The notes under the pieces: model-generated
What the model was told of the DNA's origin: nothing
Databases searched by the model: none
What the model saw: only the letters and a program-made list of their open reading frames with translations
Part shown: positions 713 to 51,323 of the stretch, piece by piece
How the letters are laid out: each line of letters opens with the position of its first letter
Numbering within the stretch: the stretch's first letter is position 1
Made by a program: the position numbers and the translations under genes
Assembly: GCA_944324825.1 (NCBI GenBank)
Contig: CALUXU010000005.1
Span: forward strand, 66,264-130,263
Origin: Candidatus Gastranaerophilales bacterium
GTDB taxonomy: Bacteria > Cyanobacteriota > Vampirovibrionia > Gastranaerophilales > Gastranaerophilaceae
DNA: 64,000 nt
Reading direction: 5' to 3'

Positions 713-786
713 GGGCTGCTAGCTCAGGTGGTTAGAGCGCACCCCTGATAAGGGTGAGGTCGGTGGTTCGAGTCCACTGCGGCCCA
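713..786 (+). tRNA. tRNA-Ile (anticodon GAT)
   Basis: Cloverleaf read by eye: acceptor GGGCTGC/GCGGCCC (one G-U), anticodon loop CTGATAA, T arm GGTGG-TTCGAGT-CCACT, discriminator A. CCA is not encoded. Confidence 0.93.
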
Positions 787-790
787 GATT

Positions 791-821
791 AAAAAAGACA
801 GGTTTTAGGCCTGTCTTTTTT
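791..821 (+). terminator. Rho-independent terminator after tRNA-Ile
   Basis: AAAAGACAGG ... CCTGTCTTTT hairpin followed by a T run, immediately 3' of the tRNA. Confidence 0.8.
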
Positions 822-943
822 AATCTTTGTAGTAGGACGAGTAATAGGTTTCTGGGACATTGAGACGAGGAAAATTGAATAAAAAATCAAACAGACAGCA
901 CGATTGAGGCTGTTTTTTAGTATTGAGATGTAGGGGTCTTTTC

Positions 944-1038
944 GTCTTGGATTATTCGGGGTGTCGGAAAGTTCTCAGCTTCCCGACACCTTACGGGCTT
1001 GCTCGTCAAGCCTCACATCGCCCTACCGAAAATCCGCT
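944..1038 (+). repeat. P-module copy 1 (MITE-like hairpin element)
   Basis: GTCTTGGATTATTCGGGG - hairpin (GGTGTCGG...CCCGACACC) - TTACGGG ... CCCTACCGAAAATCCGCT. Related copies lie at 33061-33152 and 47342-47428. It is locally GC-rich in an AT-rich background. Confidence 0.7.
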
Positions 1039-1385
1039 GCACTTAAGTACTCTTTTCTTGCACTCTTTTGCACTCCATTTGCAAATTTTTAAAACCACAT
1101 TAGGCTCAAATCGCCTTGGTGTTTAAAGTTAAGCCCAGTGCAAGAGCGGCTTGTCGGCAGAGGGCTGAAGCGAAGCGTGCCCGTTTAACGCCGACAAACA
1201 AGAGAAGTGCAATAAAGTGCAATTTTATTTTTACTTGCAAATTGGGATACCCAAAATTATCAATGAGATTTAGATTTATTATTTTATTTCTATCATTCCG
1301 ACAGATTAAAAATTAACGAAATTATTATATGCTTCGTGACAACACTTAAATTAATCTACTAAAAATTTATGATAGTATTAATATT

Positions 1386-2429
1386 ATGAAAAACGAATTT
1401 ATTGAAAAATTTTATAACACAATTATTAGTGGCTTTGACAGTGATGAAATTCAAAAACAAAAATTTGAGGAAATAATTAAATCCGTAAAAGCAATAACTC
1501 CATCATCTTTATTTAGATATCGAAAAATTACTGATTATACTTTAAGTGATTTAGATAATGATATTATTTCTTTATCATATCCTAGTAGTTTTAATGATCC
1601 TTATGATTCTTTAATCAAAGCAGATAAACAAAAATTTATTGAAAATGTTTTAAATGTAAACAACAAAGACAAAATAATTAATTTAATAGAAAAAACTCCT
1701 GAAATTTTAAACAAATTAAATTTAAACAAAGAAAATAAAGAACAACTTGTTACATATATAAACAAGTTAAAGAGTGTACCAAATGAAGAAATTAAACAAT
1801 TATTACTATCGGCTCAAAATGTTATAGATTCTATATTTAATAGTGCTTGGAAAGATGTTTTTATTTATTTAAAATCAACTCCTCGTATAGCTTGTTTTTC
1901 TGAAGATGTTTCATCAAATGTCATGTGGGCACATTATGCTGATTCTCATAAAGGTTTTGTTATTGAATATAATTTTAATGATTATATTAATCTTTGTACC
2001 ACTTGTCAAAAGCAATGTCCCAACAGACATAATGAGTCACTATATCCAGTAAAATATTCAGACGAACGTTTTGATGTAACACCTTTATTAATTTATTCTG
2101 CAAATTTATTTTTAATGAAACAATTTTTAAAAGAAGGAACTGTATTATCTGATGATCAACTTGTTATTTATAAAGCATTACTAAGTAAATCAACAAATTG
2201 GAGTTATGAAAAAGAGTGGCGTTTAATTTCACTTAGTGACAATCCAAGATGTACAGAACAAATAAAATTAAAACCAAAAGCCATATATTTAGGGATTGAT
2301 ATTAGTTCAATAAATTCTAAGATTTTAAAATATCTTGCCAAGGAAAAAAACATTCCAGTATATCAAATGAATATTGATATTGAGTCAACAGATTATAAAA
2401 TGAATTACATCAAAATAGTTGAAACTTGA
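1386..2429 (+). CDS. Hypothetical protein, DUF2971-like
   Basis: 347-aa ORF. The block PRIACFSEDVSSNVMWAHYADSHKGFVIEYNF and the later WSYEKEWRLI resemble the DUF2971 family signature. This is recalled from memory, not searched. Confidence 0.6.
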   Translation: MKNEFIEKFYNTIISGFDSDEIQKQKFEEIIKSVKAITPSSLFRYRKITDYTLSDLDNDIISLSYPSSFNDPYDSLIKADKQKFIENVLNVNNKDKIINLIEKTPEILNKLNLNKENKEQLVTYINKLKSVPNEEIKQLLLSAQNVIDSIFNSAWKDVFIYLKSTPRIACFSEDVSSNVMWAHYADSHKGFVIEYNFNDYINLCTTCQKQCPNRHNESLYPVKYSDERFDVTPLLIYSANLFLMKQFLKEGTVLSDDQLVIYKALLSKSTNWSYEKEWRLISLSDNPRCTEQIKLKPKAIYLGIDISSINSKILKYLAKEKNIPVYQMNIDIESTDYKMNYIKIVET

Positions 2430-49507: not shown

Positions 49508-49515
49508 GAGAAATT

Positions 49516-50844
49516 ATGAATAATACTTTTATGAAGGAAAAACCGATTATACCATTGATTTTATCAATGTCACTACCTATGGTTCTATCAATGCTGGTTA
49601 ATTCTCTATATAACATTATAGATAGTTATTTTGTTGCCCGGATTAGTGAGGATGCAATGACAGCACTATCACTTGTCTATCCTATTCAAAATTTTATAAA
49701 TGCAGTAGGAATTGGTTTTGGTGTTGGTATTAATGCGGTTATCGCCTTTTATCTTGGTGCCGGGGATAATAAAAATGCTGATAGGGCTGCAACTATAGGA
49801 CTTCTATTGGCGATTATTCATAGTATTGTAATGACAATTTGTTGTATTGCGATTATGCCATTCTTTTTAAGAAAGTTCACTTCGTCAGAATCTGTGATTG
49901 AACTTAGCATTCATTATTCTGTTATTGCATTCTCTTTTACTCTGTTTGTTGTCGTTGGGATAACATTTGAGAAAATCTTTCAAGCCGCAGGTAAAATGAA
50001 AACAACAATGATAAGTTTGATGAGCGGATGTATCGCAAATATCATATTGGATCCCATACTGATTTTTGGTTATGGTCCATTCCCACAAATGGGGATTAAA
50101 GGAGCTGCATTAGCAACCGGAATAGGGCAGATGCTGACATTAATAATATATCTTGTTGTTTATTATATGCGGCCAATCTGTGTACATATTCGCAAGAAGT
50201 ATATTTTATTTTCTCCTAAAATAGTATTGAAACTATACTTAATTGGGATTCCGGCTACGCTGAATCTTGCATTACCATCGTTATTAATTTCTGCACTAAA
50301 TGCAATTCTGGCTGCTTATTCCGAAGTCTACATTTTAATTTTAGGTATTTATTATAAATTGCAAACATTTATCTATCTCCCTGCAAATGGTATTGTTCAG
50401 GGAATGCGTCCTTTAATTGGTTATAATTACGGTGCTGGTGAAAATAAAAGAGTCAATCAGATTTATAGAATTGTTTTGTATCTGAATGGTATAATTATGA
50501 TATTGGGAACTATAATTTGCCTGTTTTATCCGGAAAAACTTATGGAACTCTTTACTCATACTGATTATACCCTCCAAGCTGGAGAAACAGCATTGAGAAT
50601 TATAGGAGCAGGGTTTATTGTTTCTGCAGTGTCTGTTACTTCATCAGGTGCATTAGAGGGATTAGGTAAAGGAATTCCGTCATTGTTAATTTCGCTTTGC
50701 CGGTATATATTTATCATTATTCCAACAGCATTTTTATTAAGCCGGATATTAGGAGTAGTAGGGATTTGGCATGCATTTTGGGTTACTGAAGCTGTTACTG
50801 CCATTATTTCTGTTACTATATACCGTAAAGTACTAAATAAATGA
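49516..50844 (+). CDS. MATE-family multidrug efflux transporter (second copy)
   Basis: PLILSMSLPMVLSMLVNSLYNIIDSYFVARISEDAMTALS and a 12-TM layout. It is a paralogue of the upstream gene. Confidence 0.88.
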   Translation: MNNTFMKEKPIIPLILSMSLPMVLSMLVNSLYNIIDSYFVARISEDAMTALSLVYPIQNFINAVGIGFGVGINAVIAFYLGAGDNKNADRAATIGLLLAIIHSIVMTICCIAIMPFFLRKFTSSESVIELSIHYSVIAFSFTLFVVVGITFEKIFQAAGKMKTTMISLMSGCIANIILDPILIFGYGPFPQMGIKGAALATGIGQMLTLIIYLVVYYMRPICVHIRKKYILFSPKIVLKLYLIGIPATLNLALPSLLISALNAILAAYSEVYILILGIYYKLQTFIYLPANGIVQGMRPLIGYNYGAGENKRVNQIYRIVLYLNGIIMILGTIICLFYPEKLMELFTHTDYTLQAGETALRIIGAGFIVSAVSVTSSGALEGLGKGIPSLLISLCRYIFIIIPTAFLLSRILGVVGIWHAFWVTEAVTAIISVTIYRKVLNK

Positions 50845-50998
50845 TTTAATTTATACGGTAAATTTTATATCAAATTAAGATGTATAAATTGGTAATATAA
50901 TCTATAAAAAGCATATATGGTTTAAAATTATATCATGTGTTTCTGTAAAGCAAACTGCTGAACAATTAGCTTTAATTGTTTTTAAACAGCAGAAAAAT

Positions 50999-51124
50999 AT
51001 GCTTAAATGCAATAGAATGCTTGAAGCAGGAGAAGACCCATTGTATGTTGCAATAAGAATAACAAAATTTACAAGCGAAAATGTCGGACTTGCAGCCCCT
51101 TATGCTTTAGAAATTGCAGTTTGT
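50999..51124 (+). pseudogene. Fragment of rarA/mgsA (replication-associated recombination protein A, C-terminal domain)
   Basis: [37 protein letters not shown] matches the conserved [15 protein letters not shown]...ASEDIGLADP block of RarA. Only about 40 aa are present, and the rest of ORF 50999..51187 is repeat sequence. Confidence 0.65.
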
Positions 51125-51266
51125 AGGTTGAGGCTTCTACTCCAACACAAAGTGTCCCAAAATAATCAAAGCATCTGTAACAAGTAATCAAACCATGTGT
51201 TCTTTTACAATGCCAAAGGCATTGAAGACGTCAACCGTAGACCCGTTAAACGCGAGCGAGCAAGAC

Positions 51267-51323
51267 AATCCCACCTCCTCCTCCATTTAAAACGGGTCTG
51301 ATATTTTCAGATCCGTTTTTATT
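51267..51323 (+). repeat. 57-bp direct repeat, copy 2 (tRNA-Ser(TGA) tail plus terminator)
   Basis: Identical to 44756-44812. Confidence 0.92.

Follow-up and report, generated by a model that had tools for sequence, protein, structure and literature searches.

tRNA genes and their duplicated 3′ ends

We analysed a 64-kb stretch of DNA from a Gastranaerophilales (Melainabacteria) genome with a G+C content of ~33% (the whole stretch is hereafter the window), in which tRNA genes are followed by duplicates of their own 3′ ends and by short hairpin elements. Six tRNA genes were called in the window with ARAGORN and Rfam:

712-787, + strand: tRNA-Ile(GAT), intact; its last 11 nt, ACTGCGGCCCA, recur at 19821-19831
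22872-22943, - strand: tRNA-Cys
32941-33016, + strand: tRNA-Pro(CGG)
36088-36176, + strand: tRNA-Ser(CGA); its tail, counted from A58, is 36160-36175
36723-36796, + strand: tRNA-Glu
44685-44774, + strand: tRNA-Ser(TGA)

At all duplicated sites the upstream copy belongs to an intact tRNA, and tRNA-Cys and tRNA-Glu have no tail copy in the window. A repeat finder run over the 64 kb agrees with the three perfect repeats that the original prediction, made from the same DNA, had reported at tRNA-Pro, tRNA-Ser(CGA) and tRNA-Ser(TGA). At tRNA-Pro, 33002-33068 recurs at 33153-33219 (67 nt, 97% identity, with 58 nt perfect within it), which leaves an insert of 93 bp by the perfect 58-nt repeat or 84 bp by the 67-nt repeat. 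At tRNA-Ser(CGA), 36160-36249 recurs perfectly at 36321-36410 (90 nt, with 71 bp between), the tail is found a third time at 36622-36637, and a repeat of 96 nt joins 36245-36340 and 36546-36641. At tRNA-Ser(TGA), 44756-44812 recurs perfectly at 51267-51323 (57 nt, with 6454 bp between). Perfect repeats of 57-90 nt cannot have arisen by chance within 64 kb. The near-identical end ascribed to the Ser-CGA inserts and the Ser-TGA block, GCGAGCGA(C/G)CAAGAC|AATCCC, is present at all three places (36306, 36607 and 51252).

The claim that four of the six tRNAs carry a duplicate of their own tail is thus secure for Pro, Ser-CGA and Ser-TGA (58, 90 and 57 nt, all perfect) and weaker for Ile. No ungapped copy of the tRNA-Ile tail is found, even with up to three mismatches. 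The far copy at 19813-19831 reads GAGTCC-TT-ACTGCGGCCCA, which matches at 17 of 19 nt if a 2-nt indel is allowed, or exactly over an 11-mer (19821-19831) beside a recurrent element end, and the 17-nt copy originally reported holds only with that indel. The site itself is real, since the trailer behind the far copy shows homology to the one that natively follows tRNA-Ile in strain L158.

Empty, occupied and rearranged alleles

Alleles of the same species from other samples were obtained as contigs (contigs and genome loci are L-numbered throughout) through exact-protein look-ups with the flanking genes. The comparison of empty with occupied sites, which the original prediction had proposed as a check, found empty alleles at two of the tRNA genes. 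At tRNA-Pro, L012, L013 and L018 have a single copy of the 67-nt sequence and no insert, and other strains have the 84-nt insert and a second copy. The Ser-TGA site forms a series: L004 is empty, L005 has a 145-bp insert with the 57-nt repeat, L001 has in addition a 2.2-kb unit, and the window and L002 have a 4.1-kb unit on top of that; L003 and L007 have different units at the same place. At tRNA-Ser(CGA) the same units occur in different orders, with a different short unit, E, before the window-type B-D-C block in L001 and L003 and behind it in L006. Together, the empty and occupied alleles and the reordering at Ser-CGA establish, as the original prediction had supposed, that the duplicates arose by insertion at tRNA ends rather than by local tandem duplication. 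Exact-protein look-ups with the gene upstream of tRNA-Ile and with the transposase TnsB gave no match, and hence no empty tRNA-Ile allele was obtained.

Runs of N in short-read assemblies coincide exactly with these tRNA-linked arrays (L008, L009, L010, L013, L016 and L020). The arrays evidently break or collapse such assemblies, and apparently "short" alleles are to be read with care.

Anatomy of the short hairpin elements

The small inserts are gene-less and hence non-autonomous, and measure ~85-200 nt. Their layout is clearest downstream of tRNA-Ser(CGA):

36177-36320, + strand: scaffold unit 1; left hairpin GGGATGAGAACC-hp1-CAGGTTCG up to 36244, then a 76-nt core (36245-36320) with the end CCAAGAC
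36321-36405, + strand: second tail copy (36321-36336) and the left hairpin of unit 2
36406-36545, - strand: D element, 140 bp, an inverted member of the X family (see below), AGCGGATTT...AAATCCAAGAC, placed right after the GGTTCG of the scaffold
36546-36641, + strand: core of unit 2 (36546-36621), the third, native tail copy (36622-36637, one mismatch) and the native trailer

In such a scaffold the tRNA tail is followed by a terminator-like hairpin, a left hairpin, the core and then the tail again. The left hairpin has the form GAGAAC + n - loop or hp1 - n + GTTCG, with GAAC pairing with GTTC in minimum-free-energy folds. The core (76-98 nt) consists of AGCGSGAGSGAGCWGAGGGCGRAGG, a variable hairpin and CCGYAGACCCGTTWAAYGCGAGCGASCAAGAC, with the 3′ end GCGAGCGASCAAGAC|; its conserved arms pair together, and in the variable hairpin the stem sequence changes with the pairing kept.

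These features were read from an alignment of 27 distinct cores, for which 500 shuffles served as the null for pairing and covariation. The C/G of the ...CGA(C/G)CAAGAC end covaries with core position 5 (C:G in 16 cores, G:C in 8), and a second pair switches between U:A (16) and A:U (10). Paired cells make up 94.3% of the alignment as against 80.3% in the shuffles, and the covariation score of 0.332, as against 0.110 when shuffled, was reached by 0 of the 500 and drops to 0.05-0.10 when the partners are slid. The segment GCGAGCGAGC, found at both ends of the core, pairs with itself through G-C pairs split by a conserved tandem G.A, and the loops are mostly triloops.

Rfam 15 reports only tRNAs at gathering score and nothing relevant at E values up to 10 over 36080-36720 and 780-1400, so that no known RNA family matches the core or X. 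A hammerhead reading of GAUGAGAAC was rejected because stem II is missing and GAGAAC is the complement of the T-loop GTTC within a hairpin. The scaffold is likewise no acceptor mimic or decayed tRNA copy, as the similarity to GGATGAG is limited to Ser tRNAs.

A second element, which we call X (GTCTTGGATTATTCGG...CCGAAAATCCGCT), has three copies in the window: one in the Ile island (944-1038), one as the insert at tRNA-Pro and one within the Ser-TGA block (47342-47428). The Pro site carries duplicates at both ends of the gene:

32700-32939, + strand: tRNA-Pro head copies with inserts alpha (32713-32839) and beta (32861-32939); polymorphic between strains
32941-33068, + strand: tRNA-Pro and, from the T-loop up to cccgaat, the first (proximal) copy of the 67-nt repeat (33002-33068)
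33069-33152, + strand: X copy 2, without the GTCTTGGA start; absent in L012, L013 and L018
33153-33219, + strand: distal 67-nt copy of the Pro tail and trailer

X hairpins covary by eye (GGTGTCGG/CCGACACC versus GGTGCAGG/CCTGCACC, and GGGC/GCCC versus GGGT/ACCC). Long flanking repeats are not general for X and appear when it sits in a tRNA gene (Pro here, Asp in L119). The D element recurs at the same place in L093, L095 and L096, and when X, D and the core are set in one orientation all three read 5′-GTCTT-(long stem)-GCT-3′. A third kind of boundary, the F-type end CAACGGAGTCCTT, closes a 125-bp mini-element at tRNA-Arg (L095 and L096), is found at tRNA-Tyr (L217, followed by an 11-nt tail) and stands inverted at the tRNA-Pro head. 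There, the 5′ end of the tRNA is duplicated upstream, which the original prediction did not report, as ATCGGAATGTAGC at 32700-32712 and ATCGGAATGTAGCGCAGCTTG at 32840-32860 (13 and 21 nt); insert alpha opens with the inverted F-type end AAGGACTCCGTTGCAACG, and the content and order of the head inserts vary between strains. Duplication of tRNA ends is therefore not confined to tails.

X was further observed in the IMG/VR contigs L230-L236 and beside phage structural genes (L140, L144, L146, L171 and L214), indicating that it spreads into phages of these bacteria.

The small elements are thus miniature and non-autonomous, as the original prediction held. That they are deletion derivatives of the large blocks found no support; they form hairpin families of their own.

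Which copy is native

At several sites the two copies of a tRNA end can be told apart. In L005 and L001 the proximal Ser-TGA terminator reads gaTccg and the distal one gaCccg, as in the empty site, and three additional differences mark the proximal copy in L003 and L007. L038 and L099 have a foreign terminator as the proximal trailer, without the encoded CCA that is retained in the distal copy; the L038 proximal trailer is the same as the trailer duplicated on both sides in L060, which implies that a scaffold can take the trailer of its previous site to a new one. The distal Ile copy is followed by the native-type trailer that stands directly after tRNA-Ile in L158. These differences argue that the copy adjoining the tRNA arrives with the element and that the far copy would be the displaced native end. 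Integrative elements that supply a replacement for the gene end have the same geometry, from which we argue that the mobile unit would comprise one repeat copy and the element.

Clade-wide distribution and the T-loop target

The shared end also occurs well beyond the window. A scan of species-representative genomes with the pattern GACYCGTTWAAYGCGRSCGASCAAGA gave 85 stretches, nearly all from Candidatus Gastranaerophilales/Melainabacteria of gut samples, and in 80 genome loci that were then fetched the ...CAAGAC end of the core abuts the tails of at least 20 tRNA species: Thr, Gly (two anticodons), Ser (four), Arg (four), Val, Leu (four), Gln (two), Glu, His and Tyr. The identical tail sequence is found in an intact tRNA 130-210 nt upstream, and the copies begin 16-19 nt from the tRNA 3′ end. 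Junctions fall at 57/58 for the ...CAAGAC ends and at 59/60-60/61 for X ends, and F-type junctions vary more, lying at position 53 or 11 nt before the end. The tRNA-tail-specific integration of the original prediction is therefore better described as T-loop-specific insertion at tRNA ends (57/58 to 60/61), with one element family serving many tRNAs.

The segment before the core ends in GTTCG and 1-3 bases matching the T-stem of the element's own tRNA (more rarely GTTCA, in L049 and L088). With this target-matched segment in front of the core and the tail behind it, the scaffold holds both halves of a T-arm with the core between them. In L029, L034, L048 and L070 a core directly follows the GTTCG of another scaffold, nested or in tandem, and tandem arrays of the accretion type occur at Ser-CGA and its strain variants as well as in L080, L073 and L042. 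Among contigs fetched for an unrelated motif, without selection for tRNAs or cores, 15 tRNAs had sufficient sequence downstream, and a tail copy follows 5 of them.

Some copies lie elsewhere. The metagenome-assembled genome Lapin-014__bin53 has ~17 core copies upstream of pilin-like genes, followed by CTTATTCGC-type short repeats and not by a tRNA tail (L028, L032, L043, L047, L055, L056, L059, L061, L067, L076, L091 and L098); these pilin-gene copies are a non-tRNA niche of the core element. More than 120 metagenome contigs contain the X motif, as do 7 viral contigs, and none of its neighbouring genes is constant. The elements thus resemble miniature inverted-repeat transposable elements in being short, non-coding and present in many copies, with the core in its 85 stretches, X in its metagenome contigs and no gene constantly beside them. 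Terminal inverted repeats and a fixed target duplication of that type are not seen, as the ends pair through a stem with conserved G.A mismatches and the flanking repeats range from 0 to 90 nt.

The composite block at tRNA-Ser(TGA)

The 6.45-kb block at tRNA-Ser(TGA) is, by its sequence, a composite of one 145-bp scaffold and two non-autonomous Mu/Tn7-like transposons:

44685-44812, + strand: tRNA-Ser(TGA) and the proximal 57-nt repeat (tail and terminator, 44756-44812), with the element-type gaTccg
44813-44855, + strand: start of the 145-bp scaffold, GAGGATGAGAACCC and the 5′ half of hp1, closing with CTTGA, the 5-nt target duplication of unit A
44856-47052, + strand: transposon unit A, TGTATT...TTTACA, with an XRE regulator, two small membrane proteins and a 44-bp tandem repeat
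47053-47090, + strand: middle of the scaffold, with CTTGA, CTGGTTCG and the 5′ arm of the core, AGCGCGAGCGAGCTGAGGGCGGAGG
47091-51209, + strand: transposon unit B, with the same ends as unit A, X copy 3 (47342-47428) and an MgsA_C fragment
48062-49507 and 49516-50844: two MATE efflux genes in unit B
51210-51266, + strand: rest of the core hairpin, with the end GCGAGCGAGCAAGAC
51267-51323, + strand: second (distal) copy of the 57 nt, the native tRNA-Ser(TGA) tail and terminator in displaced position; the native flank GATGTATATTT comes next

Unit A is bounded on both sides by the 5-bp duplication CTTGA, which is single in the unoccupied scaffold of L005. Unit B has ends of the unit A type, with 12 bp replaced and no duplication seen, and neither unit contains a transposase gene. 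L007 shares the same left end and the same junction, behind which stand an ATPase gene and a Mu-type transposase. Elsewhere, transposon ends lie before the left hairpin of a scaffold (L074), ~10 bp upstream in hp1 (L003) and in the core arm (L051, as with unit B), and their occurrence at several scaffold positions in different species marks the scaffolds as preferred targets. The kilobase scale of the Ser-TGA block is evidently the product of secondary DDE-transposon insertions into a miniature scaffold.

Two details of the units may be added. In unit A the 44-bp sequence CAAGTTTGAGAAAAATAAAATTGAAATTGAGATAAATGCGGAAC is repeated ~3.7 times at 45146-45307 and looks iteron-like. At the right end of unit B, a 62-aa open reading frame (50999-51187) corresponds to an MgsA_C fragment according to the gene call in L002 and probably represents part of a gene that the transposon captured or truncated.

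The Ile island and its TnsB-TnsC-recombinase-like operon

The region between tRNA-Ile and its displaced end contains the following features:

788-841, + strand: trailer and terminator beside tRNA-Ile, differing from the native trailer of L158 and L220
842-943, + strand: left block of the Ile-island transposon, TAATAGGTTTCTGGGACATTGAGACGAGG...
944-1038, + strand: X copy 1, GTCTTGGATTATTCGG...CCGAAAATCCGCT
1137-1204, + strand: degenerate core-like hairpin, AGTGCAAGAGCGG...CCCGTTTAACGCCGACAAACAAGAG, among GTGCAA repeats, recognized by eye against the core consensus
1386-2429, + strand: DUF2971/PDC-S31 candidate defence gene, the first of the island
2495-4306, + strand: TnsB-like DDE transposase, 603 aa, Mu-transpos_C and rve
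4375-5055, + strand: TnsC/TniB-like AAA+ ATPase, 226 aa
5052-5612, + strand: 186-aa protein with a winged helix-turn-helix (wHTH) and the core-binding half of a tyrosine-recombinase-like protein, without the catalytic domain
5612-19678: island cargo, with a helix-turn-helix protein, HNH, Mrr type IV restriction and HipBA (18304-19678)
9000-10688, - strand: DRT2 reverse transcriptase
11078-17386, - strand: type I restriction-modification hsdS/M/R
17465-18004, - strand: FimB-like tyrosine invertase, 179 aa, beside hsdS/hsdR
19800-19820, + strand: right end of the island, F-type, CTGTACGGCAACGGAGTCCTT
19821-19870, + strand: displaced native tRNA-Ile 3′ end, ACTGCGGCCCA, and native-type terminator

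By its predicted gene content this is a defence island. The trailer beside tRNA-Ile probably came in with the element. The left block (from 842) also occurs in other contigs, both downstream of tRNA-Ile, where the trailer is of three different kinds, and downstream of another tRNA; in some contigs (L135, L136 and L202) it opens with up to four tandem TAATAGGTTTCTGGG repeats, which may be bound by the transposase or the selector. Clusters of GTGCAA/TTGCAC (1040-1240) flank the degenerate core in the interval from X to the first island gene and may be repeats for protein binding at the transposon end. Searches for the ends of this transposon by inverted repeats and BLAST were uninformative, and a TGTAGTA/TACTACA pair falls inside the invertase gene.

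The statement that only the Ile island has a recombinase gene needs correction: what the island has is a DDE transposase, an AAA+ partner, a tyrosine-recombinase homologue without a catalytic domain and a small FimB-like invertase. The operon matches PF09299, PF00665, PF13401 and PF05621 in Pfam; neither TnsA nor TniQ/TnsD has a Pfam, NCBIfam or PDB match in it, the third gene being tyrosine-recombinase-like. TnsB is 48-54% identical among the window, L094 and L007, and the gene order of a large gene, TniB and the recombinase-like gene is conserved in unrelated metagenomes. In L094 the third gene encodes 357 aa with Phage_integrase and SAM-like domains, nearest to Xer/integron-integrase models, and the operon-bearing element ends core-CAAGAC|tail. 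An inverted degenerate core-like hairpin lies upstream of TnsB in L094 (455-540) and a forward core closes the element; core-like hairpins may thus bracket a transposon of this type.

The 186-aa protein of the window is 36% identical to the first 181 residues of the L094 protein (E 1e-29). The recombinase-like protein has 109 relatives among 1.84 billion representatives, with full-length ones in two classes of 172-187 aa and 332-365 aa; the short form is ~50% identical over its full length and is therefore a stable form. Catalytic residues were assigned by eye against the canonical motifs, as they occur in the 179-aa invertase of the window (TGLRISD, HTLRKTF and NHSS..LRY). In eight long forms Arg-II and Tyr are retained, Arg-I is Lys in six and Arg in two, His-II is Asp/Glu in all eight, and at His/Trp-III five have Asp and the other three Leu, Met or Tyr. 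By analogy with TnsF (see below), we infer one of two roles for the recombinase-like protein: it would direct the TnsB-TnsC transposon to the scaffolds at tRNA genes, or it would act as an atypical but functional integrase; the 186-aa short form is a candidate target selector.

A model for the elements and its alternatives

We consider it reasonably probable that tRNA genes serve as attachment sites for short hairpin elements and that the resulting scaffolds then act as landing pads for Mu/Tn7-like transposons. The elements, comprising the "core" scaffold, X/D and F-end families (gene-less and ~85-200 nt), would enter the T-loop between 57/58 and 60/61, with one class at tRNA-Pro also entering the D-loop region. 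At its start the inserted DNA would carry a tRNA end of its own, in most cases with a terminator behind it; this would restore the gene, and the native end would be displaced beyond the element and remain there as the duplicate. Repeated events would stack units in tandem by accretion, and further elements would insert at the T-loop-like GTTCG| carried by each scaffold. The scaffolds would then receive Mu/Tn7-like transposons (TGT...ACA ends and a 5-bp duplication), either with the TnsB-TnsC-recombinase-like operon or non-autonomous, which would deliver cargo such as the MATE pumps at Ser-TGA and the defence island at Ile. The data establish the polymorphic insertions, the anatomy of the elements and their wide distribution in the clade, the folding of the core, the DDE transposons within scaffolds and the conserved operon. 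As to the movement of the small elements, we infer that they are excised as units with one repeat copy and integrated in trans by a site-specific, probably tyrosine-type, recombinase encoded outside the window.

Several observations weigh against this model. The two 57-nt Ser-TGA copies of the window are identical, and X at tRNA-Pro (67-nt repeats) and a D-like element at tRNA-Asp in L119 (~87-nt repeats) are flanked directly, without extra element-borne sequence, so that these two cases look more like long target duplications. One conserved element end is used at at least 20 tRNAs, which is unusual for tyrosine integrases, as these normally have one target each. A double-stranded circle of 160-200 bp is, moreover, a poor substrate for classical integrases. 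No active recombinase adjoins any small element and no integrase stands beside the core in the 80 loci; the genes around the core and X encode pilins, DnaK, UvrA, flagellin and phage proteins. A search for an autonomous parent, with a gene between GTCTTG...CCGCT or AGCG...CAAGAC ends, gave only the composite Ser-TGA block in 1.6 Mb of related DNA. Neither excised circles nor a free attP were observed, and IMG/VR does not contain the core motif. An integrase with an attP matching the shared end, which the original prediction had proposed to look for, did not turn up either: the sole linked gene of tyrosine-recombinase type has a non-canonical active site or lacks the catalytic domain, and with such altered or missing catalytic centres these proteins may not catalyse recombination.

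Some of these points would be met by a long and variable target-site duplication, in which nicks in the T-loop and 5-90 nt downstream, or target-primed synthesis, are followed by gap repair that makes the tail copy. X lies directly between its 67-nt repeats at tRNA-Pro, where the empty allele has exactly one copy, the D-like element of L119 lies likewise between ~87-nt repeats, and D in the Ser-CGA scaffold has AGCGG on both sides; the identity of the Ser-TGA copies fits as well, as does a repeat length that varies (5, 12-31, 50, 57, 67 and 87 nt) next to a constant ...CAAGAC junction. We nevertheless regard this explanation, though a serious rival, as unlikely, because the differences between copies are directional, with element-type sequence near the tRNA and native-type sequence far from it (L005, L001, L003, L007, L038 and L099), because the 5′ part of the L038 scaffold is itself the trailer duplicated in L060, so that the mobile unit includes the trailer of the previous site, and because the internal target-matched GTTCG segment is left unexplained. 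Single-strand hairpin transposition, by which an HUH/Y1 enzyme (IS200/IS605- or REP/RAYT-like) or one like an integron integrase inserts 3′ of GTTCG in an extruded T-arm hairpin with the tail copy as part of the element, draws on the hairpins themselves. The three families share 5′-GTCTT-(long hairpin)-GCT-3′, the core stem has covarying pairs and GCGAGCGAGC self-pairing through tandem G.A, its triloops are mostly GNA/AAA and the hp1 loops resemble GCGAAGC; such tandem G.A pairs, triloops and loops are typical of stable DNA hairpins. Nested insertion at GTTCG| recurs without duplication, and a flanking gene is missing, as for REPINs. Since the covariation could equally reflect RNA, since the left flanks of the non-tRNA core copies vary (CTT, TTT, AAT, GGT and others), unlike IS200/IS605 targets, and since no Y1 or RAYT gene was seen in the 1.6 Mb, over which no profile search for either was made, we think this mechanism quite improbable; in its specific form of an IS200/IS605-type fixed target it was rejected for want of a constant left flank.

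Two further explanations fare worse. Simple tandem duplication or replication slippage beside tRNA genes, without a mobile element, would allow Pro and Ser-CGA to be drawn as tandem periods of 151, 161 and 301 bp, and is very improbable given that the inserts hold sequence missing from the empty alleles, that the same insert families recur at many tRNAs and non-tRNA sites in many genomes, and that the order of units differs at one site. RNA-guided homing, with the far tail copy acting as a type V-K-like guide that sends the TnsB-TnsC transposon to the tRNA, is suggested by a host in the cyanobacterial lineage, by an island with TnsB, a short TnsC and no TnsA, and by the conserved structured segment directly before each tail copy. 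It would require that the far copies be guides, and they are instead displaced gene ends followed by native trailer and flank; there is no Cas12k open reading frame or CRISPR array in the window and no Rfam match, the repeats reach 90 nt, and scaffolds without any transposon exist (L005). With native trailers and flanks behind the far copies and transposon-free scaffolds, a guide of this kind was ruled out, and we give RNA-guided homing the least chance of all, next to none.

Within the model of short hairpin elements integrated at tRNA genes and serving as landing pads, we tentatively suggest a way in which one family could use so many targets. The core, together with the two target-matched T-arm halves, might form a re-targetable attachment module, as folded DNA or RNA, through which one recombinase acting in trans could address essentially any tRNA T-loop, and the Tn7/Mu-like family might use a domesticated relative of that recombinase, the 186-365-aa tyrosine-recombinase-like protein, as the selector that brings it to these modules. 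The two layers together would build the cargo islands at the tRNA genes of Melainabacteria.

Significance and comparison with known systems

tRNA genes are classic anchors of genomic islands, each island being usually pictured with one tRNA and one integrase. In the present case the T-loops of at least 20 tRNA species across an order of gut bacteria are occupied by one family of very small structured elements, with every gene kept intact, and the scaffolds serve cargo transposons with efflux pumps and anti-phage systems. Searches of the literature by sequence strings and by topic returned no description of these elements. The arrays explain much of the strain-level variation around tRNA genes and the N gaps in short-read assemblies of Melainabacteria. 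The mobilising enzyme, if found, could be a recombinase with a broad, structure- or guide-defined choice of target; and if the role proposed for the TnsB-TnsC-recombinase-like operon is true, it would be a second, independent borrowing of a recombinase domain for targeting by a Tn7-type transposon.

Williams is said to have described in 2002 how genomic islands enter the 3′ part of tRNA genes by tyrosine integrases, with the crossover in the T-loop or the anticodon loop. The present elements share with such islands the insertion in the 3′ part, a repeat that starts in the T-loop, the rebuilt gene and displaced native end, the defence and efflux cargo and the polymorphic occupancy. They differ in that no integrase lies beside the attachment site, a family serves at least 20 tRNA species, the units are hairpins of 85-200 nt with an internal copy of the left half of the target, and cargo comes through separate DDE transposons. 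Folded single-strand sites and hairpin repeats are known from integron attC, the attP(+) of CTX phage, REPIN/RAYT and the IS200/IS605 PATEs. These are likewise short non-coding hairpins in which the bases at the stem foot are conserved; they occur in numerous dispersed copies and are mobilised in trans, as would be the case here, whereas the GTCTT...GCT signature, the T-loop target and the accompanying copy of the tRNA end set the present elements apart.

Cis-mobilizable elements (CIMEs) and accretion at tRNA and other attachment sites have been reviewed (PMC5704250) and surveyed in S. salivarius (PMC7563491). They too consist of gene-poor or gene-less DNA between attachment-site repeats, in tandem with other elements at the same site. 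CIMEs are, however, decay products of integrative and conjugative or mobilizable elements of one site and one integrase, as opposed to a conserved, structured, multi-copy family at many tRNAs and at some sites outside tRNA genes. The 1.6 Mb gave no parent element that has both of these ends together with a functional integrase; in L094, core-CAAGAC|tail closes the element with the TnsB-TnsC-recombinase-like operon.

For the second layer, the closest parallel is TnsF, an inactivated tyrosine-recombinase domain that acts as the target selector of Tn6022-type Tn7 transposons, whose target is also used by the active recombinase element Tsy (Faure et al. 2023, PMC10293859). As in that case, a TnsB/TnsC transposon here has a tyrosine-recombinase-like protein with an altered or missing catalytic centre and would occupy the site of a recombinase-type element. 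The likeness is drawn from the description of TnsF; in our operon no TnsA or TniQ is seen and the protein is smaller (186-365 aa), with an N-terminal wHTH, and the target is comM for Tn6022 and tRNA-linked scaffolds for the selector predicted here. Tn7-like elements and type V-K, I-B2 and I-D CRISPR-associated transposons home downstream of tRNA genes in cyanobacteria (PMC9881144; bioRxiv 10.1101/2021.02.06.429022). Unlike these, the present system has no CRISPR-Cas module and no TniQ/TnsD, and its tRNA-matching sequence is a displaced gene end; what the two have in common is the host lineage, the TnsB-TnsC core, the insertion downstream of tRNAs and a cargo of defence genes.

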